DNA of 20,000 nt. It comes from an uncultured virus (IMG/VR IMGVR_UViG_3300029305_009042) (Duplodnaviria; Heunggongvirae; Uroviricota; Caudoviricetes). A model generated the notes under the pieces. The model was not told the origin of the DNA, made no database searches, and was given only the letters and a program-made list of their open reading frames with translations. The stretch lies in IMG/VR virus record IMGVR_UViG_3300029305_009042. One strand, written 5' to 3'. Positions 1 to 15,443 of the stretch are shown here, piece by piece. A program made the translations under genes and the position numbers. How positions within the stretch are numbered: position 1 is the first letter of the stretch; the number at the start of each line of letters is the position of its first letter.

Positions 1-1016
1 GAAAAGTTTCTGATCCGGATCGTCTTGTTGGCGATCTGACTGAACTGATTGTACCGCTCCCGCTCAAACTGTGTGATGCCGTTCGGCCAGCGGCGCAGCT
101 CATACTCATAGGCGTTGTTCATCCCGGTGGAGACCGGACGAATAATCCCATGATCCGCGTCCCGGGAGATCGAGATCCGGTCCCGCCGGATACTGGCTCC
201 CGAGGAGAGAAACCTCCGCAGCTGTGCATCCCGATTCTCCTCATAGGTGTAGTACAGGACCAGCTGAGGCGCCGCACCCGTTCGGCAGGACTCCGCGAAA
301 GACTGCCGGGCACAGCTGACGGCGGTGCTGACCGCGAAAGTCGTTTTTCCCGCGCCGGTAGCCCCCATGACACAATAGCACTCTCCCGGAGCTTCACCTC
401 CGCCAAGCGCCCGGTCAAGATACGGAACCCCGGTAGGCTGCCGCGGCGTCTCCTCAGGAAGCGAGTCAAAGAACTCGTCCGTAAACGGCAGTTCCGCACT
501 GTCCGTCGTACCGGCAGTCTGGATCATCCGCGCCTGCTCCGCCAACGACTCCAGCTTATCCGTAAGCGCCTCTTCCTCCTGAAAAGATCGAAGCGCATAC
601 AGACCGCTCGTCACGACACGGTCCTCAAGGAACCGGCGCATGAGCGATGTTCCGATCACCGTGTTCAGCTCGTCCTCGTCGTCAAAGACATACGCCAGAA
701 AACCGCTTTCCGGATCCCTGTCCTGTACCAGCTTGAACTCGAGATCCTCGTCTACGAATACATCCCGCAGGACCTCCCGCAGATAGTACTCCATCAGCCC
801 TCGAGTCGGAGCTTCCGAAGTCTCCTGCTCCTGATAGTACCTTTTCAGTGCCTGCCACAGGTACAGAAGCGGCAGCTCCTCATAGTTGTCTCCCTGATAG
901 ATTCCATCGCGGGGCACCTTAAAACAGGTATCCTTCAAAAGGGAAGCATACGTCTGATACAGAACCGGCAGGCGGATCAGATGCTTCACCGCGATCAAAA
1001 CTTCAATAATTTCCAT
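1..1016 (-). CDS. dnaB: DnaB-like (SF4, RecA-fold) replicative helicase, truncated by the window edge
   Basis: Absent from the ORF track because it runs off the edge. Hand translation from ATG 1016 (SD GGAGG at 1021-1025) gives MEIIEVLIAVKHLIRLPVLYQTY...PTGVPYLDRALGGGEAPGECYCVMGATGAGKTTFAV...VLYYTYEE. This has the TG..LD...GG motif, Walker A GATGAGKT and the catalytic Glu strand. The frame stays open to the window start. Confidence 0.88.
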   Translation of the reverse strand, partial: MEIIEVLIAVKHLIRLPVLYQTYASLLKDTCFKVPRDGIYQGDNYEELPLLYLWQALKRYYQEQETSEAPTRGLMEYYLREVLRDVFVDEDLEFKLVQDRDPESGFLAYVFDDEDELNTVIGTSLMRRFLEDRVVTSGLYALRSFQEEEALTDKLESLAEQARMIQTAGTTDSAELPFTDEFFDSLPEETPRQPTGVPYLDRALGGGEAPGECYCVMGATGAGKTTFAVSTAVSCARQSFAESCRTGAAPQLVLYYTYEENRDAQLRRFLSSGASIRRDRISISRDADHGIIRPVSTGMNNAYEYELRRWPNGITQFERERYNQFSQIANKTIRIRNF

Positions 1017-1587
1017 GGCTCCTCCATTCAGGCGGTATCCTACCTCCGCAAAAACGATCGTAGGCATGACGCTTCTGGCAATACTGCTCATACGCATCCT
1101 GCCGTAAATCTTTCACAAAGTGCGCTTTGCCATTCAAGGCAGCAAAACAATACCGAACCAGCGGCGAAACAGAGATCCCAGGATCACAGACAGCATTCAC
1201 CAGGGACATGACCGGGTCCTCTCCCAGATGCCTGCGGATCTCCACCTCAGAAAGAAGGGTCTTTTCCTCAGCATCCCACGCATCCTTTACAGACGCATCG
1301 TTTTGCAGCTCCCGCTTGTACCTTTCGATATACTCCGACTTCACGGCCTCCTGAGGAGACCGGATCGTGTACCGGGACAGCGTGTCCTGCAAATAGGACT
1401 CCACGTCCAAACCATGGTCCAGCAGTTTCTGCGCGACGGACGGCCATACCGGCTTGTACTTTCGCCCGTCTACTGCCGTGCCGCCGTCATACCTCGGCAT
1501 TCTGGTCTTTCCGTATCTGGTATTGTTCTGCTCATTGTAGAGCCTGAAATAAACTTCTCTAAAAACTTCACAAGCGCTTCCAGCCAC
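1003..1587 (-). CDS. Hypothetical protein between the SF2 helicase and DnaB
   Basis: ORF 1003..1782 overlaps the helicase by more than 200 nt, so GTG 1587 or ATG 1500 is the likelier start. Its stop overlaps the dnaB start region, suggesting coupling. No recognisable motif. Confidence 0.7.
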   Translation of the reverse strand: MAGSACEVFREVYFRLYNEQNNTRYGKTRMPRYDGGTAVDGRKYKPVWPSVAQKLLDHGLDVESYLQDTLSRYTIRSPQEAVKSEYIERYKRELQNDASVKDAWDAEEKTLLSEVEIRRHLGEDPVMSLVNAVCDPGISVSPLVRYCFAALNGKAHFVKDLRQDAYEQYCQKRHAYDRFCGGRIPPEWRSHGNY

Positions 1588-3040
1588 TTTGGGTCCATCC
1601 TGCTTCTTCGTATGTCTGTTTTCTGCTGCATGCGTTCCGATAAAACGGAGAATTCGTTCCGTCAAACCGGTCCACAATATCCACAACTCTTGCCGAAGAC
1701 TTTCCATCCGCGACACGGGAGGCACGCCCGCCGCCCTGCATCGCTGAAATGGAAGAAGCCCGCGCCGATGCGTTAATGACAACGGACAGATCCGGAAAAT
1801 CTACACCCGTAGACCAGACATCCGTCGCGATCACACGCCGAAGAGTCCCGTTTTTGAACTCTTCCTTCATGCGGTTCCGATCCTTTGCCTTCAGCGGAAC
1901 ATAGTCCTCCGGAAGCAGCCCCTGCCTTTGATACCGGTACAGATCATCCGGTTTCAGATTGCCGTGTACCAGCGTAAATTCCGGCAGGTACTGTTTCAGA
2001 TAGAGCGCATGCTCAATCGTAGAGACCAGGATCAGGACCTTCTCGTCTTCCGCACACTTCTCATTCACGTAACTGGAGATCAGTGCATTCCGATACCCGT
2101 TTCGCCAGATAAGATGCCGGTTTCGGGAAACCGTCTCGCTCCACATTCCGGAGGTCCCGTCCGCGTCGAAACAATGAAGCCACTCGACTGTGATCGGGAC
2201 CACCAGCCCGCCCTGAACTCCTGCCTCATAGTTCATGTTATAAATAACATCCCCGAAGATCCAGTTCAGCGCGGTGTCCGCTCCGTCCGAGCGTCCCTTT
2301 GGCGTCGCTGTAAACCCGTACATCCTTGAGACGGTGTACTTGGTCAGCAGGACATCCATGTACGTTGGAGCCGCAGCCTGATGACACTCATCGAAAATCA
2401 GAAACGCCACATCCTGCGTATCCAGCCGTCCAAGACTGTCCGCGGTAATTACTGTGACCCGGCAATCCCGATCCTTACGCTCACCGCAGAACATTCCGAC
2501 ATCGGGCGTGACCGATACCAGACGCCGGTAAATCTCATTCAGAACATCCCGGGACCGGGTGCAGATATGAAACTTCGCCGTCGGGTACATCTGGATCAGT
2601 ACACTTAACAGAAACGTCTTTCCAAAGCCGACCGGAGCGCACAATACTCCATGGCGTCCCTGAATGAACGCTTCGAGGGCTTCCAGCTGCCCCGTTCGGA
2701 AAGCGTACCGATCCAGCACGGACCGATCCGGTTCCAGATGAATATAATTCTGGTCCGGCGGCGTCAGGTCCTGACACTGGAGGGTGTGCCCTTCCTTCTG
2801 AAGAAAACGCACGACCGCCGGACACATGCCGTAGGTCGTGATCAGAGTGTCCTTTGTCGTATCCACCATCATGTAGACCGGTGTCGCGACATACTGCCAC
2901 TTGCGCCCGCTCCGGATCCTCTCCGTCTTTGTGTACTGGAATGTATTGTGTAAAGAAGAACGGAGCCCCGGCTCCAATGCCGTGCCCCGCTCGCCTCGGA
3001 TCTCAATGGAATTTCCATTCCTCAGGATCTGCACATTCAT
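1568..3040 (-). CDS. Superfamily 2 DExH helicase, UvsW/XPB-like
   Basis: Q-motif FRTGQLEA, Walker A APVGFGKT, motif II FDECH, motif III GFTAT, motif V TGVDFP and motif VI QGGGRASR. Start placed at ATG 3040, an ATGA overlap with the thioredoxin stop, with GAGG upstream. Confidence 0.92.
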   Translation of the reverse strand: MNVQILRNGNSIEIRGERGTALEPGLRSSLHNTFQYTKTERIRSGRKWQYVATPVYMMVDTTKDTLITTYGMCPAVVRFLQKEGHTLQCQDLTPPDQNYIHLEPDRSVLDRYAFRTGQLEALEAFIQGRHGVLCAPVGFGKTFLLSVLIQMYPTAKFHICTRSRDVLNEIYRRLVSVTPDVGMFCGERKDRDCRVTVITADSLGRLDTQDVAFLIFDECHQAAAPTYMDVLLTKYTVSRMYGFTATPKGRSDGADTALNWIFGDVIYNMNYEAGVQGGLVVPITVEWLHCFDADGTSGMWSETVSRNRHLIWRNGYRNALISSYVNEKCAEDEKVLILVSTIEHALYLKQYLPEFTLVHGNLKPDDLYRYQRQGLLPEDYVPLKAKDRNRMKEEFKNGTLRRVIATDVWSTGVDFPDLSVVINASARASSISAMQGGGRASRVADGKSSARVVDIVDRFDGTNSPFYRNACSRKQTYEEAGWTQSGWKRL

Positions 3041-3339
3041 GATTTCAGGTCCTCGATAATTTCTTCCAGCTTCTTTGCCGAACAAAGCCCCTGAAATTCC
3101 GCTTGAATTTCCTTGTCTTTCCATATCTGCGTGTACGGCAGGCGGTCGATCGTGAACTCTGAAGACAACTCCGGCGAATCTTCCAGACGTACCTGCGTAA
3201 AGCTCACTTCCGGATACTTTTTCTTAAGCTGCGCCTGTACCATCCCAGCGGCACGGCAGGCAGCACAGTTGTCGGCGCCGAACTCCACGATGTGGATCTC
3301 TCCGTCGCTTACCAGCTTATACAGTTCTTCTCTTGTCAT
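3037..3339 (-). CDS. trxA: Thioredoxin-family protein
   Basis: 100 aa with VEFGADNCAACR (CxxC in the thioredoxin position), a cis-Pro region IDRLPY and a C-terminal FQGLCSAKKLEEII helix. Confidence 0.88.
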   Translation of the reverse strand: MTREELYKLVSDGEIHIVEFGADNCAACRAAGMVQAQLKKKYPEVSFTQVRLEDSPELSSEFTIDRLPYTQIWKDKEIQAEFQGLCSAKKLEEIIEDLKS

Positions 3340-5438
3340 TTCTTTTCTCCTAAGTCAACTAACGAATTGAATAATGGGCGCAGCATCTCATCATGCGTCA
3401 CGATGAAGATCTGCAGATCCGAAAACACCGGGGATTCCTTCAGACGCTTCAGCACATCCGTCAACGCGCCTCGGTTTCTGGAATCCAGAAAAGTCGTAGG
3501 CTCGTCCAGCATCACGAAACCGCCGGTGTCATCCTGCGCAAATACGGAATGAAGCGCAAGCCGGAACGCGATCGACAACAGCATCTTCTCCCCTCCGGAG
3601 AGTCTGGCTGCCAGCTGCACCGTTCCGTTATCGAAGTGACAGAAAAAGTCTCCGCCCTCCACGAACTCTACCGTAAACGGTGCGTTAAATTCGGTCAGGT
3701 ATATCCGGATCTTCTCTGTCAGCTTCCTGTAGATGTCGCAGGCAACTTTCGCCGGAAACGCCTTGATGTGGAACATATCCGCCAATGCGTGCAGGTCCCG
3801 ACGAAGCTCCGGATCCGTCTCCTTCAGCTGATTCCGGATCCTGAGAACATCCTGCGAGATCCCTTCCAGCTCCAGTGCGATCCCGTCATACTGAACACGC
3901 TCCAGAAGCTGGTCCTTCACCTGCTGGATCTGTTTATTAATAACAGCCTGCTCCTGTTCCAGTGCAGCCGTATCCTGAACCTCCATCTCAGACCACACTG
4001 GATTCTCCTGAATCGCCTGAAGATTACGGTTCAGCTCTTCGAGCCGTGTCTGAAGACGTTCCTGCTCCTGCCGCCACGCCTGAGACGCGGCTTCGTGACC
4101 GGACACTTTCTTCAGGGACTCTCTAAGGTTATGGACTTCAAGATCCAGATCTGTCAAGTCCTTCTCCAGCGCAGGGAATACCTCTGCCGGTACTCCCATG
4201 TAGCCGAGACTGGCAAGCGGCTGCTCCAATGCCTCAAGATGCGAAGCATACTGCGAGTTCCGGCGGGCCTGTTTCTCGATCTCCTGTTTCCGGAGTGTCA
4301 TATACGATTTCAGCTCCGAGAGCTTCTGCCGCGCCTCCGTAAAGTGTGCCTGCGCCTTTCGCAGGTCATCCTCAGTCCATGATGTTTTCGCCCCGCACGT
4401 GGGACAGCGTCCCTCTGTGCCGCAGCCGGTGATCAGATCAAAGAGCTTTTGTGCCTCCTTCGTCTCCGCAACCAGATCGGTATACTGTGCCTGAAGCCGA
4501 TCCAGCTCGTCCGGATCAATCTCTTCCGGAGGAGCGAGTCTCAGAAAGGCAGAAGCCTGTTTATACACTGCGCTGCGCTCCGCCTGCCGCTGAAGGGAAA
4601 GCGTTAATTGAGTCTCCAGATCCGCCCGGGAGCGGGTCTCCTCGCAGACAGGAGCCGGCTCCCGCAGCCGTTCCTGTATCATCTGCAGCTCTGCCTCCCC
4701 TTTTTCCTGCTGTGCAGACAGATACGCCCGCAGCTGCACAGAACCAAGTCTTCTGGCCGTCTCCTGTCCGGATTCCGTCAGAGACTTCAGCATATCCTCC
4801 AGCGTCTGTTTTGGCGGCAGGGAAGCGAAACTTTGAAGGAATGCTTCTTTCTGCGCCCGCTGATCCGACAAAAGAACCAGCTGCGCTTCCAGTTCCGCCG
4901 CCTTCTGATCTACGGTCTGCAGGATCTCCATGATCTTCTTTCGCTCCCGTTCAAAAAACTGAAGCGAAAAGACCCGCTGCAGTATCTGATTCCGTTTTGC
5001 GGAAGTCTCGCGGAAGAGCGACACCAGATCTTCCTGCGGGGTACAGAAGACCTGACACGCCACGTCCGCCGAGATGTGGATCATCTCCGCGATCAAGGCC
5101 CGGGCATCCGCAGAAGTTTTCGTGATGACCTCCCAGATACCGTCGTTCAGACGACTCACGGAAACAGTCCCGTTCTGAATGGCGCGGGTGATCTTATAAT
5201 TTTCCGCGCCGTTATCCGTGCAGATCTCCAGCGCGACAGATCCGGTCTTTTCCCCGGTGCTGATATACTCCAGCTTGTTTGTGGGAGTATACCCTGTCAG
5301 AGCATACACCAGTGCCCGGATGATATTACTCTTTCCGGATCCGTTAGGACCCAGGATCCCGACCAGTCCCGCGTCAAAATGCACGGTGAGTTCCCGGTGC
5401 TGGCACCAATTGACCAACTGTAATCCTTTTATTTTCAT
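3336..5438 (-). CDS. sbcC: SbcC/Rad50-like (T4 gp46-like) SMC ATPase
   Basis: Walker A GPNGSGKS, Q-loop TPQED, long coiled coils with central zinc hook CPTC, signature LSGGE, Walker B/D-loop MLDEPTTFLD and H-switch IVTHD. Confidence 0.95.
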   Translation of the reverse strand: MKIKGLQLVNWCQHRELTVHFDAGLVGILGPNGSGKSNIIRALVYALTGYTPTNKLEYISTGEKTGSVALEICTDNGAENYKITRAIQNGTVSVSRLNDGIWEVITKTSADARALIAEMIHISADVACQVFCTPQEDLVSLFRETSAKRNQILQRVFSLQFFERERKKIMEILQTVDQKAAELEAQLVLLSDQRAQKEAFLQSFASLPPKQTLEDMLKSLTESGQETARRLGSVQLRAYLSAQQEKGEAELQMIQERLREPAPVCEETRSRADLETQLTLSLQRQAERSAVYKQASAFLRLAPPEEIDPDELDRLQAQYTDLVAETKEAQKLFDLITGCGTEGRCPTCGAKTSWTEDDLRKAQAHFTEARQKLSELKSYMTLRKQEIEKQARRNSQYASHLEALEQPLASLGYMGVPAEVFPALEKDLTDLDLEVHNLRESLKKVSGHEAASQAWRQEQERLQTRLEELNRNLQAIQENPVWSEMEVQDTAALEQEQAVINKQIQQVKDQLLERVQYDGIALELEGISQDVLRIRNQLKETDPELRRDLHALADMFHIKAFPAKVACDIYRKLTEKIRIYLTEFNAPFTVEFVEGGDFFCHFDNGTVQLAARLSGGEKMLLSIAFRLALHSVFAQDDTGGFVMLDEPTTFLDSRNRGALTDVLKRLKESPVFSDLQIFIVTHDEMLRPLFNSLVDLGEKK

Positions 5439-5491: not shown

Positions 5492-5535
5492 GCCCGGGTG
5501 TCCTTTACAGCTTCCGACACCCGGGCTTTTCTTTT
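5492..5535 (+). terminator. GC-rich hairpin with T-tract (intrinsic terminator polarity on +, possibly bidirectional)
   Basis: GCCCGGGTGTC (5492-5502) and GACACCCGGGC (5516-5526) form a perfect 11-bp stem with a 13-nt loop, followed by TTTTCTTTT on +. Confidence 0.65.
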
Positions 5536-6652
5536 ATAGTGAAAAATGCTCTTTGAGGTCTTCAAAGAATCGATCCTCATTTGTCAGCGCATCTCTGGCC
5601 AGCTCCTTCACTCTGTCTTCCGTCTGATATGTCTGAAGCGACTCTATTGCGTAGGACAGCGCGTTGGAAGCCAATACTGCATCTGTATTCTCCGACGGTA
5701 CGATCCGCTCCTGTACCGGCACCGTCCTTCGAAACAGAAACAGTCCTTTCTCCGGATCCAGACCGTCTTTCGACCCGTAATGATCCAGCAGATACTTTAC
5801 TGCCTCTTCTTCAAACGCCTCTGCATGCAGCACAGTCAGGGGTGAGACTGAAAGAGTCCTTCGATACCTCTCTGGTTCCCACTTCTGTCTGAACTCCTCG
5901 ATCCGTGCCATCGTGAACGGACCGTCAAAGGTCAGATGGGTCATGGGACGGATCTCAAACGACTGATACATGGCTTTATAGCCATTATTCAGCGTTCGGC
6001 ACATGAGCAGAAAACGTTTCTTTGACAGGAGCAGGCAGCCGCCTTCCGGTTCAGGAATGCTGCATCGATAAGCAGGTCCTGAGTAAAGCAGGTCGGTATG
6101 CTTCCCGTACAGATGCCGCTGTTCATGAATATCCCCCGCCAGTACGACAGGGAATCTCGCGTAAGTTTCCAGAGGTACGGATGCACTGATGAAACTGTCC
6201 TCCCTATCCTCCACGAACTGGTGGACGACCAGAAAGTCTGAAACCTGTACAGACTCTAAATTTTCTTTGATTTTTCTGGGGGTAGTATAGTCCATTCCGG
6301 AGACGGTTTCACCCCCCGGCAGAGTCACCGGTTCCGGTCCCAGATGAATGGTGTTTCCGAGAAAGCTGGTCCATGACGGCAAAATGTCGTCGTGATTCCC
6401 GTTGATATAGTAGATGGGAATGTCCAGATACTTGTTTCTAAGGCGTATCGCCTCTTCCAGCAGGTCCGGAGTTATCCTTTTTGTGTCCCATATATCACCG
6501 CCGAGAACGATGGAAACAGGCTCTCCATACTTTCTGGCGTCCTTTGCTGTCTCCAGCACACGCTGAAAACCGGTCAGGGAGTCATTTATTTTCAATCCCT
6601 GTGCCGAAAACGTGTGATTTCTGATATGCAGGTCCGCTGCAAAAATGATCAT
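5534..6652 (-). CDS. sbcD: SbcD/Mre11-like (T4 gp47-like) metallophosphoesterase nuclease
   Basis: Phosphoesterase motifs ADLH, GGDIWD, GNHD, VVH and GDIH. Lies directly upstream of the Rad50-like gene. SD AAGGAG. Confidence 0.93.
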   Translation of the reverse strand: MIIFAADLHIRNHTFSAQGLKINDSLTGFQRVLETAKDARKYGEPVSIVLGGDIWDTKRITPDLLEEAIRLRNKYLDIPIYYINGNHDDILPSWTSFLGNTIHLGPEPVTLPGGETVSGMDYTTPRKIKENLESVQVSDFLVVHQFVEDREDSFISASVPLETYARFPVVLAGDIHEQRHLYGKHTDLLYSGPAYRCSIPEPEGGCLLLSKKRFLLMCRTLNNGYKAMYQSFEIRPMTHLTFDGPFTMARIEEFRQKWEPERYRRTLSVSPLTVLHAEAFEEEAVKYLLDHYGSKDGLDPEKGLFLFRRTVPVQERIVPSENTDAVLASNALSYAIESLQTYQTEDRVKELARDALTNEDRFFEDLKEHFSL

Positions 6653-6728
6653 TTTGCGTCTCCTTTCTAAAAAATTTAAGTCTCAAAAGTGTTATCAATA
6701 ACACCCAGCAGGAAAGCAAATTCCAAAA

Positions 6729-6756
6729 AATCTGAATATTTTTTTGAGCTTGTCAA
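6729..6756 (-). promoter_or_regulatory. Possible sigma70 promoter for the sbcD-sbcC-trx-helicase operon
   Basis: Perfect TTGACA (6756-6751), a 16-nt spacer and a weak -10 CAGATT in AT-rich context, about 80 nt upstream of sbcD. Confidence 0.35.
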
Positions 6757-6835
6757 GAGGAAAAAGTAAAAATTTTGGTTAATTAGATTTCTTGAATTTT
6801 GCTTAAAAGCAAACAAAAGCACAAGTCCGTACAGT

Positions 6836-6864
6836 TTGCAATAGATTTTTGGCGTGGTTATTTT
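6836..6864 (+). promoter_or_regulatory. Possible sigma70 promoter firing into the structured non-coding region
   Basis: TTGCAA, 17 nt, then TATTTT preceded by TGG, i.e. TG near the extended -10 position. The predicted start near 6871 lies just before the hairpin cluster. Confidence 0.4.
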
Positions 6865-6888
6865 GGGTGGACTATTTTTCTACCTTAA

Positions 6889-7075
6889 GCAAATAACTAA
6901 CTAGTTTCTCGTTAGCACTCGAAACTGCGTTAGGCTTACTTTTTCGCTATCGCTCAAAAGCTGGCTCGCTATAACATAGCTCGCTAAAGCCTAACTAGTC
7001 AGTTATTCGCCGGTAAAAGAAAAAAAATTCGCGTGCGCTCCATCCGCTGCGCTCCTTCCGCTGCACGCGAATTTT
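6889..7075 (-). other. Structured single-strand element (branched stem plus four G.A-mismatch hairpins); candidate single-strand origin or primosome site
   Basis: The 16-bp stem 6889-6904/6995-7010 pairs fully only on the minus strand (two G.T wobbles). Inner 9-bp stem 6929-6937/6987-6995 and 13-bp stem 7024-7036/7063-7075. Tips read GA-GT-GCTA-AC-GA, GA-GC-GATA-GC-GA, GA-GCTAT-GTT-ATAGC-GA and GGA-GC-GCA-GC-GGA. Confidence 0.65.
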
Positions 7076-7278
7076 CTCTCTTCCTTCACCCTTTCTGCCT
7101 CTGCTGTCTCTGACTCCTGCCTTCCACAGAAGCCTGTCTCTGAAGCTCTGCAAGCCTTCCCGCGTCACCTGTCCTGCAAGGTCTTCTCCTGCGAAAAGTC
7201 ATTTCTGCCTTCTCTGTGTACCCTGCATTTCAAGTTCTTGGCTCTTATTTGATTTTTGACTGAATTTTTTGAGGGTAG

Positions 7279-7290
7279 ATAGTATCAAGA
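7279..7290 (-). other. pC194/phiX174-type nick-site-like sequence (TCTTG/ATACTAT)
   Basis: The minus strand reads TCTTGATACTAT, about 37 nt after the stop of the Rep-like gene. CTTG/ATA is the established core nick site of pC194-family and phiX174 origins. The match is short. Confidence 0.35.
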
Positions 7291-7326
7291 GTCATCAAGA
7301 CCCCAAAACGCCTCCTAGCGACGATT

Positions 7327-8202
7327 TTAGATCCTTTCTTGAAAACAGACTTCAGGACCTGCTTCTACAGCAGATCCTCTCGACTCCTGCAAAACGTCCT
7401 CTCTGCCTTTCCTGCGAAGAAGTTCCTCTACCTGCTTCGCAATCTGTACAGGTTTCTTACATTTGATTATTTTATATTTTCGTACAGGCTTAAGTCGAGA
7501 AACCGTTTTTCTCTTTCCTGGCTTCTGAAAGAGTTCACCTCCTGTCACCCAGGTCTGTGAACTTCCTGTCAAAGTCAAAAACTTCAGCAATGCTTCCGCT
7601 GACTGTTTATAGAATTCCGGTAGCTGAAACGAATGAAGTATCACCGACACGGACTGCTTCGGGTGTCTTAAGGGTCCCAGGTACTTCATTCTGGAGCTGT
7701 GTCTTGGAGTTCCTGATTTCAAAGATCCGTCTTCCTCCCAAACGGTTTTCTCTGTCCAGTAAGGAGAGCGGGTAGTAATGTTCCGCCGTCTGAACAGCAG
7801 AAGGGTTACTACCCGCAAGGACCAGCAGTTCTCCTTTTTATTCCAGACCAGCTCGTACCTGCTCACCCAGCCTCTAAGACGGGAAGAACCCTTAGGCATC
7901 GTGCGCCGTATCTTTCGGATCCTGTCTTTCAAGACCTGATACTGCGGCTTCATGTCATCCAGACTGTCCAGAAGAAACTCCTCCGTGCGCAGGAAACCGT
8001 AAAGAATGCCCTTCCTGCGCCTGTATGCCTCTATCTTTGCGGAGATATTTTTCTGGCGGAGCCGTATGCAGAACTGACACAGCTGCACGTTACGGCAGAA
8101 ATGCTTTGGTCTGCAATACAGCACACTTTCTAACTTTTTCCGCAGCCGTTCATCCCGAGTCGCCTTCAAAGCCGCTTTCACGGCATCTTCCATTGGATTC
8201 AT
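7327..8202 (-). CDS. Basic protein resembling pC194/Rep_1-family HUH rolling-circle initiators, with degenerate catalytic motifs
   Basis: N-terminal Zn-like LYC..FCRNVQLCQFCIRLR. GWVSRYELVWNKKENCWSLRVVTLL aligns with Rep motif II G..R..E.T.N.....HPH.H.L but lacks the His residues. C-terminal LTGSSQTWVTGGELF resembles L.G.R....GG.LK. Very K/R-rich. Confidence 0.6.
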   Translation of the reverse strand: MNPMEDAVKAALKATRDERLRKKLESVLYCRPKHFCRNVQLCQFCIRLRQKNISAKIEAYRRRKGILYGFLRTEEFLLDSLDDMKPQYQVLKDRIRKIRRTMPKGSSRLRGWVSRYELVWNKKENCWSLRVVTLLLFRRRNITTRSPYWTEKTVWEEDGSLKSGTPRHSSRMKYLGPLRHPKQSVSVILHSFQLPEFYKQSAEALLKFLTLTGSSQTWVTGGELFQKPGKRKTVSRLKPVRKYKIIKCKKPVQIAKQVEELLRRKGREDVLQESRGSAVEAGPEVCFQERI

Positions 8203-8374
8203 CGTTATTAATAACCTCCCGATCTTCTTTCAAAATTTCACATTTCGACGGCAATCCGTCATAATAGTCATACCGGCGGGCAGACACCGTGTCCAGCTTT
8301 GACAGCGGCTGTTCCCGGACCATCTGGTCGTTGATATGATTGTTTTCAATATAATTTTTTGAAGAGCCAGGCAT
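8150..8374 (-). CDS. Small hypothetical protein (74 aa)
   Basis: ATG 8374 has a strong SD AAAGGAGG located inside the first codons of the divergent terminase gene. Overlaps the start of the Rep-like gene. Confidence 0.5.
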   Translation of the reverse strand: MPGSSKNYIENNHINDQMVREQPLSKLDTVSARRYDYYDGLPSKCEILKEDREVINNDESNGRCRESGFEGDSG

Positions 8375-8375
8375 T

Positions 8376-10226
8376 ATGTCCTCCTTTAATCCTGAGTTAG
8401 AGACCCTCATCCGCCAGCTTACGGCAGAAAAACTTTACGGCCGATCCATCCTTCCGGTGGACCGGGTCGCCATCCTGCGCAAGATCCAGGAGCTGACCTC
8501 CATCCGGACCTATGAGCTTCTGCTTCCTCTGTTCTTCTCGTTCAAAGGACGCCCGCTTACCCTGCAGGACTACCGTCCGTTCTCACCGCTGTTTTACTGC
8601 GACCGCCCGAAGCGTCTTCTGTTTAAGACAGGACGTCAGGTCGGGAAGTCGATCTCGACCGCCTCCGCGAACCTGATCATTCCCGGACAGAATCCAAACT
8701 TCACGTCTTTGGTAGCGACGCCTTTGGGCGAGCAGGTACGGCGTTTCTCGATCAACTACGTGAAGCCGCTGATGGCAGACTCCCCGCTTCCGTTTCTCTG
8801 GAACGATTCTAACACCAAGGATACGATCTACCATCACGAGTTTCCAAACCGGTCGAACCTGATCTTCTCCTTTGCTTCGCTTTCTGCGGACCGCATCCGA
8901 GGTATCGCCGCGGACATGGTCAGCTTCGACGAGATCCAGGACTTTGATCCGGACCTGCTTCCGGTTATTGAGTCCACTACGGACGCCTCCCGATTCAGTC
9001 TCATCCAGTACACCGGAACGCCTAAGTCTATGGACAACACGATCCAGGGGCTTTGGATGGACTCCAGTCAGGCGGAGTGGGTCATCAAATGCACGCATTG
9101 CAATGAGTGGAACATCCCGGCAGCGGAGTATCATCTGCTGGACATGATCGGTCCCTGGCACGAGGACATTTCCGAAGCCTGTCCGGCAACGGTCTGCCAT
9201 AAATGCAAGAAACCGATCAATCCGCGAACCGGCCACTGGGAGCACCGCATCCCGGAGAAGAAAGAACGTTTCGCGGGCTATCATGTTCCGCAGATCATTC
9301 TTCCCTGCCACTTTGCAGAAGCCGCGAAATGGAGGACGCTCATTGAGAAACAGGAAGGCGCGGCGCATACCAGCACAGCCCGATTTTACAATGAGATCCT
9401 TGGAGAATCCGTAGACGCGGGGCAGAAGCTGGTCTCCACGACGGACCTTCAGGCTGCCGGCTGTCTCCCCTGGAAGAACAATCCGGAAGATCCGTCTCCG
9501 GAGATCCTTGCCAGACGAAGCCGCTACGCGTGGATGACGCTGGCGGTAGACTGGGCAGGCGGCGGTGAATCTGCGATCAGCTACACCGTTCTCGCTCTGC
9601 TCGGGATCCTCCCGGACGGTACCGTGGACTGCCTGTGGGGAAAGCGTCTTACCGCCTCTTTGGACCACGTAGCGGAGGCAGAACAGTGTCTCTACTACAT
9701 GAAGAAGTTTCAGGTCGATACGATCGCCCACGACTATACCGGTGCCGGAACGCTCCGTGAAACGTTCCTCATCCAGTCCGGAGTACCTCAGGCATCGACC
9801 ATACCCGTCCAGTATGTCGGCAGCGCGAAGTACAATCTGATGACCGAGGTGCCGCCTACCGCGAATCATTCCCGCCGCTATTTCCGCGCCGACAAGACAC
9901 GCAGCCTGCTCTACACCATCACCTGTCTTCGAACTGGAAAACTTCGTTTTTTCCAGTACGACGGCGGTGTGCAGTCCACCGGCTCGCTGATGGATGATTT
10001 TCTCGCCCTGATCGAAGAGAAGTCCGGAGGACGCATTGGATCTCCTGCCTACCTGATCACCCGGAATCCGTCCGTTCCGGATGATTTTGCTCATGCCGTC
10101 AACATCGGCTGTCTGGCGCTCTGGCATACGACGAATATGTGGCCGAACTTCAGCCCTTACCGTCCGGATGCCGCGTCGATCCAGTACAGCTACGATGAAG
10201 ACATGGACTGGGACGTCTCAGTCTGA
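8376..10226 (+). CDS. terL: Terminase large subunit (lambda gpA-like)
   Basis: Walker A FKTGRQVGKS, Walker B IRGIAADMVSFDEIQD, coupling motif YTGTP, CTHC...CHKC zinc-ribbon insert, and RNase H-like nuclease motifs LAVDW and PDDFAHA. Confidence 0.93.
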   Translation: MSSFNPELETLIRQLTAEKLYGRSILPVDRVAILRKIQELTSIRTYELLLPLFFSFKGRPLTLQDYRPFSPLFYCDRPKRLLFKTGRQVGKSISTASANLIIPGQNPNFTSLVATPLGEQVRRFSINYVKPLMADSPLPFLWNDSNTKDTIYHHEFPNRSNLIFSFASLSADRIRGIAADMVSFDEIQDFDPDLLPVIESTTDASRFSLIQYTGTPKSMDNTIQGLWMDSSQAEWVIKCTHCNEWNIPAAEYHLLDMIGPWHEDISEACPATVCHKCKKPINPRTGHWEHRIPEKKERFAGYHVPQIILPCHFAEAAKWRTLIEKQEGAAHTSTARFYNEILGESVDAGQKLVSTTDLQAAGCLPWKNNPEDPSPEILARRSRYAWMTLAVDWAGGGESAISYTVLALLGILPDGTVDCLWGKRLTASLDHVAEAEQCLYYMKKFQVDTIAHDYTGAGTLRETFLIQSGVPQASTIPVQYVGSAKYNLMTEVPPTANHSRRYFRADKTRSLLYTITCLRTGKLRFFQYDGGVQSTGSLMDDFLALIEEKSGGRIGSPAYLITRNPSVPDDFAHAVNIGCLALWHTTNMWPNFSPYRPDAASIQYSYDEDMDWDVSV

Positions 10227-13841: not shown

Positions 13842-15443
13842 TTATTTGTACTTACTGACCGGAACCGCAAAATCCTGCCAGGCTTCGCACATCTTCAAAA
13901 TGCGCGGGTCGGTCAGAGCCTGCGGTTTTCTTGTTTTGGCGGTTTCCGCCAGCTCCTGGAACGTTGGACGGATGACCTGCCGTTTCAGAAACGCCTTTCT
14001 TTGGCTCTCCTCTACCAGAGTAGCCAGCTCGGAGCCGGAATACAGATCCGTGAGTTCAATGATCTCATCCCATTCCCGCTCAAACAGTTCAAAATCCGGA
14101 ACGCCCGCCATGGCAAACTGCTTTCGGATGATCGCCAGCCGTTCCTGCCTTACCGGCAGACTGGTATAGAAGATCTTATCAAATCTTCCTGCCCGAATGA
14201 ATTCCGGCGGAAGGACGCTGAGATCGTTGAGCGTGAAGACTACATAGGTCTCGCTTTTCTTTTCCTGCATCCAGTTCAGGAACGTTCCCAGCACACGCCG
14301 GGTCGTGCCGGAGTCACCCACGTTTCCCTGAAGTCCGGCGAAGGCTTTGTCCGCCTCGTCAACCATCAGGATACAGGATCCGAAACGCTCCACCTGCCGC
14401 AGCGCCCGCCGGATCGCTTTTTCGGACTCGCCCACAAGCGATGTGAACGCGGCGGAGATGTCCAGCACGATGACCTTCATTCCCATGATGCGTCCCATCG
14501 CTTTGGCAGTAAAGGACTTCCCTGTTCCGGGAGGTCCCCCGATGATCACGCCTTTTGCCGGACGCAATCCGGCAGCCCGTGCTTCCGGCGTGAAGCTGAT
14601 CGACGCTTCCCGGACATATTTCAGGAAGTTCTCAAATCCGCCGATATGCTCCGGATCGACTTGCGTCGTTTTTCCGAGAAAGGACAGCATCTCGGATTGC
14701 TGGACGGCTCGGGAGTGCGTCTCATCGATCCGGTCCAGAAGCGGCTGGACATCATCCGTTTCCAGATGATGATAGGTCATCCACGCGATGTCCGCCTCGA
14801 TCGCTTCCGGCGTCGCGCCTCGAAACGCATTTACTATCTTTTTCCGCATATCCGCGTTATGCAGAAATGTCTTCCGACCGGCGACCTTTTTGCTTTTTCT
14901 CGCGTCATCCAGCATTGCCTGGATCTCTTTCTCGCTAGGCGGCGGGATCTGGATCTCGTAGCCGTGCCGCGTAATGAACGGATCCGTTACCGGGTCATTG
15001 GAATAGACGATGATCTGCACGCCATAATTCGCGTACGCGGTGCAGGACAGGATCTCTTCCATCAATACGCGGAATTCCGGATCGTCCGCGTCCTGGCATG
15101 GTTCCAGCAGGATGATCACGCTGTTGGGCGGGATCTCTTTCCCTGTCGAAGACGCTTCCTGCGCGTAGAAGCTGGTCACGGAATTTCGGAGCAGATGAAG
15201 CACATCCGTCAGGGCTTTGTGTTCTCCCTGCTCTTTGTTGAATTCCGCTTTCAGGGACTCGATCGCCCTGCCGCTGCGGCAATACCGCAGAGCCTTAAAA
15301 CGATGCGGCTCCCAGTAAAAAATGGAGCAGCCTTGCGGGAGACTGTCTTCCACTTTGATCTGGAAGTGCGACAATGAGTCATACGACCCGTAAAGAAGGC
15401 GTCTTCCCTCGCGGAAGGCTCCTTGAATATCTTCCAGTTTCAT
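13842..15443 (-). CDS. Ycf46-like AAA+ ATPase
   Basis: Degenerate N-terminal AAA-like half, then IGGFENFLKY, Walker A GPPGTGKS, pore loop SLVGESE, Walker B MVDEADK and SRH LPPEFIRAGRFD. Confidence 0.9.
   Translation of the reverse strand: MKLEDIQGAFREGRRLLYGSYDSLSHFQIKVEDSLPQGCSIFYWEPHRFKALRYCRSGRAIESLKAEFNKEQGEHKALTDVLHLLRNSVTSFYAQEASSTGKEIPPNSVIILLEPCQDADDPEFRVLMEEILSCTAYANYGVQIIVYSNDPVTDPFITRHGYEIQIPPPSEKEIQAMLDDARKSKKVAGRKTFLHNADMRKKIVNAFRGATPEAIEADIAWMTYHHLETDDVQPLLDRIDETHSRAVQQSEMLSFLGKTTQVDPEHIGGFENFLKYVREASISFTPEARAAGLRPAKGVIIGGPPGTGKSFTAKAMGRIMGMKVIVLDISAAFTSLVGESEKAIRRALRQVERFGSCILMVDEADKAFAGLQGNVGDSGTTRRVLGTFLNWMQEKKSETYVVFTLNDLSVLPPEFIRAGRFDKIFYTSLPVRQERLAIIRKQFAMAGVPDFELFEREWDEIIELTDLYSGSELATLVEESQRKAFLKRQVIRPTFQELAETAKTRKPQALTDPRILKMCEAWQDFAVPVSKYK

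Follow-up and report, generated by a model that had tools for sequence, protein, structure and literature searches.

A Rep_1-like protein without the canonical catalytic residues and adjoining tandem-G.A hairpins form a candidate origin module in a large uncultured tailed phage

INTRODUCTION

Rep_1 initiators and their origins, known from plasmids of the pC194/pUB110 type, are probably, by descent, the closest family to the locus described here. This locus lies in a 20,000-nucleotide stretch of an uncultured tailed phage (Caudoviricetes; IMG/VR record IMGVR_UViG_3300029305_009042), hereafter the window, to which all coordinates refer unless stated otherwise. It consists of a minus-strand gene for a protein of 291 aa, P0001, and the 674-nt non-coding gap behind it. 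An original prediction, made from the letters of the DNA, had taken the two for a candidate phage origin built from a domesticated rolling-circle module with a dead Rep of the HUH superfamily, a nick-like site and single-stranded hairpins. Like the Rep_1 systems, the P0001 module has a four-Cys finger ahead of the core, a G-Y/W-V-R-x-E motif with an equivalent of pC194 Glu142, an SPYW motif aligned with QxEW, a C-terminal GG motif, the sequence TCTTGATACTAT on the coding strand, and a tandem-G.A hairpin of the kind found beside the pC194 nick site. It differs in that the phage protein has no equivalent of FLTLT, HUH, Tyr214 or Glu210 and no match to the family's hidden Markov model (HMM), in that the hairpin is multiplied 3 to 12 times and, in the window phage, the nick-like site follows the gene, and in that the surrounding genome is that of a 187-kb tailed phage encoding helicases of its own. 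One study reports that pC194 RepA mutants in Tyr214, Glu142 or Glu210 keep origin binding and that RepU coats its origin as about six monomers (PMC5703833).

Functionally, the nearest analogue is the origin-binding domain found in the Papovaviricetes. These domains bind duplex pentanucleotide repeats, as against the G.A hairpins that P0001 would bind. They have an HUH fold without catalytic residues, as P0001 does, whose own origin binding is putative. They are fused to a superfamily 3 (SF3) helicase, whereas P0001 stands alone with 291 aa and no ATPase domain, and they belong to another Rep lineage and to viruses of eukaryotic hosts. In polyomavirus large T antigen and papillomavirus E1, such an inactivated HUH domain recognises the origin of a double-stranded DNA (dsDNA) virus (PMC13595969, PMC4889955).

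Phages, too, encode initiators of the HUH superfamily. The gene A proteins of phiX174 and G4 are among the best structural matches to P0001, and P2 is a tailed dsDNA phage that initiates with a gene A-type protein from an origin inside the gene; unlike P0001, the A proteins of phiX174/G4 and P2 are active Tyr nucleases with an HUH motif. Single-strand origins of the ssoA type resemble the gap in being strand-specific folded non-coding regions on the displaced strand.

RESULTS

P0001 is a probable remote Rep_1 relative without the canonical catalytic set

An exhaustive phmmer search of 1.84 billion representative sequences (E ≤ 1e-3) returned seven relatives of P0001, one 69% identical and six 25–33% identical. 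A second, word-index search with the profile of the resulting eight-member family added no further members, and blastn and tblastn searches of a phage GenBank collection gave no match. The family is very small. Fourteen of its alignment columns are invariant, including C30, C36, C42, C45, R72, E74, E117, S146, W149 and G222. In P0001, a four-Cys zinc finger (C30, C36, C42, C45) is followed by an HUH-type beta-alpha-beta-beta fold, and residues 229–291 form a disordered tail of basic character.

An AlphaFold model built on the eight-member alignment (pLDDT 76, pTM 0.71) places a zinc-finger region ahead of a beta-alpha-beta-beta...beta-alpha core. Searched with Foldseek against BFVD, a database of predicted viral structures, the model had 13 matches with E values of 1e-3 or below, and the strongest of them (2.5e-7) identifies the HUH endonuclease fold by its likeness to rolling-circle initiators. 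Among the 50 matches listed, those with names were a microvirus replication initiator, G4 A*, NC29 GpA, an HRPV-1 protein and an SMRV1 replication protein. Matches in the PDB were weaker but similar in type: VIA-align ranked the SIRV1 ORF119 Rep first (Z 7.0 over 114 residues) and scored a Helitron transposase at Z 6.0; geminivirus and circovirus Rep domains came next among the PDB structure matches, with geminivirus Reps at probability 0.33–0.57. In a protein atlas, clusters carrying Rep_1 were returned at a score of 0.96.

Because a search with the pC194 Rep gave near-identical sequences only, Rep_1 diversity was drawn from PLSDB plasmids, and ten annotated Reps, 23–100% identical to pC194 Rep, formed the reference alignment. 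With hhalign, the phage family aligned to this reference over 185 columns (E 2e-4, probability 46.5%). The matched segments comprise the C-x4/5-C-x2-C finger, G-Y/W-V-R-x-E, SPYW with QxEW, and the C-terminal TGG with sGL. All four finger cysteines are invariant (8/8), and the last three align with the Rep_1 pattern C-x4-C-x2-C; in pC194 Rep, the four-Cys cluster is C37, C60, C65 and C68. E117, also invariant, aligns with Glu142 of pC194.

The remaining Rep_1 hallmarks are missing. The strand that corresponds to motif 1 (FLTLT) has the consensus LYxFxRxE in the phage family; an FLTLTG at P0001 residues 208–213 aligns elsewhere and is not conserved. The HUH histidines, H155 and H157 in all ten references, are found in none of the eight phage proteins, which read R-L/V-T/V on this strand, and P0001 has no His anywhere in residues 100–160. 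At the Tyr214 column the family reads H, Y, Q, N, N, K, H and R, with Tyr in one member of eight; no Tyr is invariant at any position. Glu210 of pC194 aligns with Ser186 of P0001. P0001 is thus probably a remote Rep_1/HUH-fold relative, and it does not have the canonical catalytic set, as had been predicted. We do not file it as a Rep_1 member, because HMM match, HUH and Tyr were each looked for and are absent. With the HUH histidines and the covalently linking Tyr absent, the canonical cut-and-rejoin reaction should be impossible for P0001. The epithet "dead" goes further than this: to judge from the alignment, the invariant E74 and E117 and an H168 present in seven of eight members may allow a non-canonical active site.

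A pC194-type origin sequence beside the gene

Behind the gene, the coding (minus) strand carries the following elements in 5' to 3' order:

7279–7300, minus strand: origin-like sequence, with TCTTGATACTAT at 7290–7279 preceded by the half-copy TCTTGATGAC at 7300–7291
6889–7010, minus strand: branched element with stems P1 (17 pairs, two of them G.T) and P2 (9 bp)
6984–6964, minus strand: G.A hairpin A, within the branched element
6961–6938, minus strand: G.A hairpin B, TTTGAGCGATAGCGAAAAA, within the branched element
6926–6903, minus strand: G.A hairpin C, within the branched element

The 12-mer TCTTGATACTAT begins 37 nt past the stop codon of the P0001 gene, on its coding strand. CTTGATA occurs upstream of rep, also on the coding strand, in five of ten Rep_1 plasmid loci fetched; three of these (L004, L006 and L007) read ATCTTGATACTAT at the nick region, in which the window 12-mer is contained exactly. 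This bears out the claim that the nick-like site is an origin sequence of the pC194 family. The nick within CTTGATA presumably falls between G and A (CTTG/ATA). A CTTGATA-type sequence is likewise found near the gene on the coding strand in the comparative locus L013 described below, as CTTGATAC, and TCTTGATAC occurs twice in the window phage genome (375 kb, both strands counted). Taken as an unspecified match, the 12-mer is unremarkable (blastn-short E 0.77); what makes it remarkable is that this origin site was specified beforehand and that the match lies on the coding strand, 37 nt beyond the stop codon of a Rep_1-like gene. An extended −10 element (TGnTAcTAT) is an alternative reading of the 12-mer.

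Tandem-G.A hairpins copy the pC194 double-strand-origin hairpin

Hairpins A, B and C have one design in common: an outer stem, 5'-GA, an inner stem of 2–5 bp, a loop of 3–4 nt, the returning inner stem, GA-3' and the returning outer stem. When both strands of the genome were scanned for this tandem-G.A design, 16 distinct hairpins came up, three of which lie within 82 nt in the gap. Four such hairpins had been counted in the original prediction; three are clean, and the fourth was presumably one of two small loops in another hairpin of the gap (7082–7017). The three lie within the branched element, where P2 encloses A and B, with C alongside. Folded as DNA, the minus strand of this element reaches −25.4 kcal/mol (z −4.5) and the plus strand −19.4 (z −2.8), and P1 forms on the minus strand only, because its two G.T pairs would be A.C mismatches on the plus strand. 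The hairpins therefore do sit on the strand from which they were said to fold. An exact 32-mer from the branched element is absent from IMG/VR.

The pC194 hairpin, GGATTT-GA-GC-gta-GC-GA-AAAATCC, sits 12 nt upstream of the pC194 nick site, and a single loop base distinguishes its core, TTTGAGCGTAGCGAAAAA, from window hairpin B, TTTGAGCGATAGCGAAAAA. This G.A hairpin stands at the start of the 105-nt pC194 origin employed for initiation and is missing from the shorter versions employed for termination (PMC7072734). Because the core of hairpin B is so close to the initiation-origin hairpin, the G.A hairpins are copies of an element of the double-strand origin, a finding that the original prediction did not contain. 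Multiplied Rep-binding elements are thus a better reading of them than the single-strand origin it had proposed.

The match to ssoA itself is partial. The CS-6 consensus of ssoA is given as TAGCGT in PMC4598088, and the TAGCGA of the window (three copies) matches it at five of six bases. These three TAGCGA are packed into 38 nt inside the branched element, as compared with 13 on the same strand genome-wide. The gap contains neither TAGCGT nor an RSB-like GCCGAG, both of which pC194 has on its rep strand, and for want of an RSB-like sequence we do not call the region an ssoA. It is also the double-strand-origin hairpin of pC194, and not the ssoA of that plasmid, that the hairpins resemble.

Pairing was counted in a set of 15 hairpins, of which L013 contributed 12, the window 2 and pC194 one, and which reduce to 11 distinct rows; hairpin A was omitted because its geometry differs. 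Of all cells, 97.7% pair, and five of the eight pairs are altered on both sides. None of 500 shuffles did as well, and slid controls paired at 25–40%. The four G.A columns are invariant over all 15 hairpins.

As a side observation, two unrelated IMG/VR contigs (L071 at 3490–3740 and L040 at 500–600) carry a repeated unit of TTGACA, T5 and a GCGAGC-GAA-GCGAGC hairpin, which looks like a hairpin-bearing promoter or regulatory unit.

Gene and hairpin array are linked in a second phage

L013 is a 12.8-kb contig from goat reticulum, binned in a metagenome-assembled genome, that encodes P0006, 24% identical to P0001. Its downstream genes encode an AAA ATPase of phrog_8638 (the family of window 13842–15443), SbcC-like pieces and YopX, and it is a related large phage. 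CTTGATAC lies 80 nt upstream of its Rep-like gene. The 894 nt past the stop codon are non-coding and hold about 11 tandem units of 53–58 nt (fold z −12.4), every one reading GATTGC-GA-GC-loop-GC-GA-GCAATC. All 12 G.A hairpins of L013 lie on the coding strand, at most 670 nt downstream of the gene, and the opposite strand has none. In two units, A-to-G changes keep pairing, as G.T, on the coding strand only. A further hairpin contains TGAGCGGTAGCGAA and comes near the hairpin B core. Linkage of the gene with a downstream structured region, put forward earlier as a check in related phages, is thus present in L013.

Searches for more loci gave little. P0001, P0003, P0006 and P0007 found none in IMG/VR, and alignment A1 and P0005 found none in JGI metagenomes; in GTDB genomes, A1 found none and P0006 one, namely L013. 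A search with the Mre11 gene that follows the gap led to one distant phage, L002, whose record has no match to the P0001 family. A MAFFT alignment of the window and L013 non-coding regions was uninformative.

Further features of the non-coding gap

In a crude open reading frame (ORF) map, the 674-nt gap is the longest stretch of the genome free of ORFs (none of ≥60 aa), in line with its earlier description as the only long non-coding region of the block. Besides the elements listed above, it contains:

7041–7226, minus strand: purine-rich tract with 10 GCAG at irregular spacing (6–34 nt)
7017–7082, minus strand: compound hairpin with a 13-bp stem, followed by T8 (DNA fold z −5.4)
6664–6863, no strand: most AT-rich 200 nt of the genome (29% GC, its lowest-GC 200-nt window)
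6689–6704, no strand: palindrome GTGTTATTGATAACAC, a variant of the GTTATNNATAAC set (6692–6703), upstream of the Mre11 ribosome-binding site

On the minus strand, the order announced by the original prediction, with the Rep_1-like gene, TCTTGATACTAT, purine-rich tract, G.A hairpins, AT-rich stretch and operon following one another, is what we observe. The purine-rich tract has 10 GCAG in ~180 nt where ~1.2 are expected, and its positions 7041–7190 (72% purine) tie for third to fourth place among the non-overlapping 150-nt windows of the genome. We found no explanation for this tract between the nick-like site and the terminator-like hairpin. The hairpin at 7082–7017 encloses two 14-nt direct repeats and is made near-symmetric by an upstream A-run; together with T8, it looks like the terminator of the Rep-like gene. 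A 57-aa GTG-initiated ORF at 7168–6995 was rejected as a gene, as it spans this hairpin and has low-complexity R/E/G composition. The stretch 6664–6863, a candidate unwinding element and promoter region, contains TTGACA (6756–6751) and the palindrome TTTGCTTTTAAGCAAA (6813–6798).

A search of the window and L013 against Rfam returned no family, with sub-threshold miRNA-like hairpin matches only. Compared with other contigs, the gap shows a substitution at 6819 and a 1-nt deletion in the T-run at 7020 among the differences listed (137 more are unlisted). Contigs from a metatranscriptome run cover 6752–6989 and parts of the gene and leave 6990–7321 uncovered, to which we attach no weight given the low depth and possible DNA carry-over.

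Some short sequences recur in and around the locus. The 12-bp palindrome GTTATTAATAAC has seven exact and four variant (GTTATNNATAAC) copies in the 187-kb genome, with far below one expected; one copy (8204–8215) separates the Shine-Dalgarno sequence of the Rep-like gene from its ATG, several are inside ORFs, and a variant, TGTTATTAATAACA, occurs in L013 at 17–30. This palindrome may be an operator, a nuclease site or a modification site. An identical 14-mer, AAATTTTTTAGAAA, stands before the Mre11 ribosome-binding site in the window (6664–6677) and upstream of the Rep-like gene in L013 (104–117).

Locus and genome context

The window corresponds to bases 9451–29450 (reverse strand) of the 187,654-bp IMG/VR virus record, estimated to be 94% complete. 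The two ends of the record have 126 identical bases in common, the first 126 bases recurring 146 to 20 bases from the end; the assembly thus wraps around (circular or permuted), despite its label as linear. The genes around the gap are:

3–1097, minus strand: DnaB-like helicase, the ORF continuing past the window edge
1568–3124, minus strand: superfamily 2 (SF2) DNA helicase (ResIII and Helicase_C domains, phrog_16)
3037–3339, minus strand: thioredoxin, between Rad50 and the SF2 helicase
3336–5438, minus strand: Rad50/SbcC-like ATPase
5534–6652, minus strand: Mre11/SbcD-like phosphoesterase, opening the operon downstream of the gap
7327–8202, minus strand: Rep_1-like protein P0001, 291 aa, separated from Mre11 by the gap
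8376–10226, plus strand: large terminase subunit (GpA_ATPase E 1.2e-10, phrog_675 E 7.7e-55)

The genes of the Mre11/Rad50/UvsW/DnaB operon named earlier are present, with the corrections that a thioredoxin gene is interposed between Rad50 and the helicase and that "UvsW" is supported as an SF2 helicase only. Because the large terminase is on the plus strand, the Rep-like gene heads a leftward unit divergent from the packaging gene. No small terminase subunit gene was seen adjoining the large one, and no search for one was made genome-wide. A minus-strand 514-aa ORF (8583–10127) overlapping the large terminase is a shadow ORF. No tRNA was found in the window. Elsewhere in the record, a 61-nt repeat of 2.6 copies, with a period that is not a multiple of three, occupies genome positions 79269–79423, and long arrays of 138-nt repeats, probably coding, occupy 156985–167000.

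DISCUSSION

A captured replicon as candidate origin

We propose, tentatively and as one quite possible reading, that a captured pC194-type replicon was reworked into an origin with its recognition protein. In this account, a pC194-type rolling-circle replicon, namely the Rep_1 gene, the nick sequence of the double-strand origin and the adjoining hairpin, would have been captured by the ancestor of a few large rumen/gut phages, and the module would then have been rebuilt. The Rep would have retained the zinc finger, the fold and the Glu142 equivalent and lost the HUH histidines and the covalently linking Tyr, while the origin hairpin with its tandem sheared G.A pairs would have been multiplied, to 3 copies here and 12 in L013. 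As an origin-recognition factor, the protein would have two targets on the coding strand, the G.A hairpins and the TCTTGATAC site, in DNA either extruded from the duplex or exposed as a single strand. Once bound, it may open the adjoining AT-rich stretch or load one of the helicases whose genes follow downstream. DNA binding, origin activity and helicase recruitment by P0001 are what we infer from the homology and from the arrangement of the locus. The placement fits an origin with its recognition protein: the module occupies the longest non-coding gap, beside the most AT-rich stretch of the genome and ahead of the Mre11/Rad50/helicase genes. Overall, the interpretation given in the original prediction is partly supported.

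A number of observations weigh against this proposal. At the level of the protein, no Pfam (E ≤ 0.01) or PHROG family matched P0001, a PDB sequence profile search with its family gave zinc-ribbon noise only, and the Rep_1 HMM (PF01446) found nothing at E ≤ 10 either in the six-frame genome or in the eight family members. The hhalign probability reaches only 46.5%, the best PDB fold scores (Foldseek E 0.07–0.14; VIA Z 7.0) fall within the range that the tools call common, and the invariant acidic residues E74 and E117 are unexpected in a pure DNA binder. As for the DNA, the nick-like site of the window follows the gene and precedes the hairpins, and in pC194 and L013 the cyclic order runs the other way round. 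The linkage of gene and hairpins rests on one comparative locus, and the hairpins counted were preselected, the scan having demanded an inner stem and three outer pairs. Hairpins with a CGAGC-loop-GCGAG core (TTGCGAGC-N3/4-GCGAGCAA) occur in 82 IMG/VR stretches, a number similar to a rough estimate of what chance would give. Of these, 80 loci were examined and none has a match to the P0001 family or the Rep_1 HMM; with the core present in many unrelated viral contigs that have no Rep-like gene, the hairpin type alone is not diagnostic of P0001. The 52 ORFs from 15 of these loci have no family in common, and the hairpin search did not extend the linkage. Finally, the GC-skew check suggested earlier does not point to the gap: the cumulative minimum lies near genome 10 kb, ~12 kb away, and the sign is unchanged across the gap. 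This test is weak, because skew in this genome also tracks gene orientation.

Alternative explanations

The main rival keeps the origin role and makes P0001 a nuclease still. A putative rebuilt metal site (E74, E117, H168) would nick CTTG/ATA hydrolytically, with no covalent Tyr link, and sigma (rolling-circle) replication would proceed toward lower window coordinates; a concatemer-packaging phage needs no rejoining. The 12-mer has been kept letter for letter despite divergence of the protein beyond HMM recognition, and the acidic residues that such a site would use, among them the equivalent of the essential Glu142, are invariant, with H168 in seven of eight members. Displacement from 7286 would expose the folding strand, and GC skew climbs monotonically over ~115 kb, compatible with one-directional replication, although its dependence on gene orientation makes it non-discriminating. 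The family has no invariant Tyr, however, and P0001 has no His in residues 100–160; to our knowledge, a Tyr-less Rep_1 nickase is without precedent. We regard this alternative as unlikely.

A different use of the same parts would make P0001 a Rep-derived transcription factor, with the hairpins as duplex inverted-repeat operators for the Mre11/Rad50/helicase operon or for its own gene. The sites do lie between the gene and the promoter region of the next operon, and RepU bound at the pUB110 origin silences the repU promoter (PMC5703833). What speaks for folded single strands rather than duplex operators is that G.A breaks the palindromes in 15 of 15 hairpins and that the G.T pairs are strand-specific. 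Moreover, 12 tandem units over 650 nt, as in L013, would be unusual for an operator, and the window hairpins lie 130–250 nt upstream of TTGACA, the sole −35-like hexamer noted. The operator explanation appears improbable.

That the structured region acts as RNA, with an RRM-like protein binding or processing a hairpin-array transcript, seems very unlikely. Speaking for it, the strand-specific folding is that of the transcribed strand, RNA often contains G.U and tandem G.A pairs, the contigs of one metatranscriptome run cover 6752–6989, and weak Cas6 rows appear in the PDB Foldseek listing. Against this, the RNA library may contain DNA, its contigs show neither strand nor ends, and neither the window nor L013 matches an Rfam family. 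The hairpins stand directly behind a strong hairpin with T8, leaving no room for a promoter, and the homologous pC194 hairpin belongs to a DNA origin. Three-base loops such as GAA, closed as GCGAAGC, are typical of DNA mini-hairpins.

About as little credit goes to a packaging (pac or cos) or plasmid-like partition site with P0001 as its recognition factor. The divergent neighbour is the large terminase, with no small subunit seen beside it, and the L013 array (12 tandem units of ~54 nt) resembles the sopC repeats of the F plasmid. But a Rep fold is not known to us in any terminase small subunit or centromere-binding protein, the L013 element adjoins DNA-metabolism genes, and no ParA-type gene was seen in the window. 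Already disfavoured, and barely tenable, is the view that a rolling-circle plasmid once integrated here and now decays without function: the catalytic motifs have disappeared and the elements stand in a scrambled order compared with pC194, yet ORF and 12-mer are intact, the eight-member family keeps 14 invariant columns, the four Cys among them, at 24–28% identity, and the linkage with amplified hairpins is kept in the distant phage L013.

Implications

It is doubtful, if conceivable, that the locus presents the Rep_1/HUH fold in a new state, either as a Tyr-less and HUH-less hydrolytic nickase at CTTG/ATA or as the first prokaryotic counterpart of the papovavirus-type origin-binding domain. 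In either case, the protein would recognise arrays of single-stranded hairpins held by tandem G.A pairs. The arrangement had been called one not known as described. This stands for phages, insofar as full-text searches of the open-access literature yielded no report of an inactivated-HUH Rep-type protein in a phage; it does not stand for origin recognition by an inactivated HUH domain as such, for which the Papovaviricetes are the precedent.

Little is known of the replication origins and initiators of most large uncultured phages, and this locus provides a concrete origin candidate with a defined protein and defined putative DNA ligands. In the hairpins, non-Watson-Crick G.A pairs are conserved between a 2.9-kb plasmid and 187-kb phages, a natural case of such pairs as a putative recognition feature. 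If the proposal is true, a rolling-circle nuclease would have been converted to serve a dsDNA virus in bacteria too, in parallel to the route that has been proposed for papilloma- and polyomaviruses.

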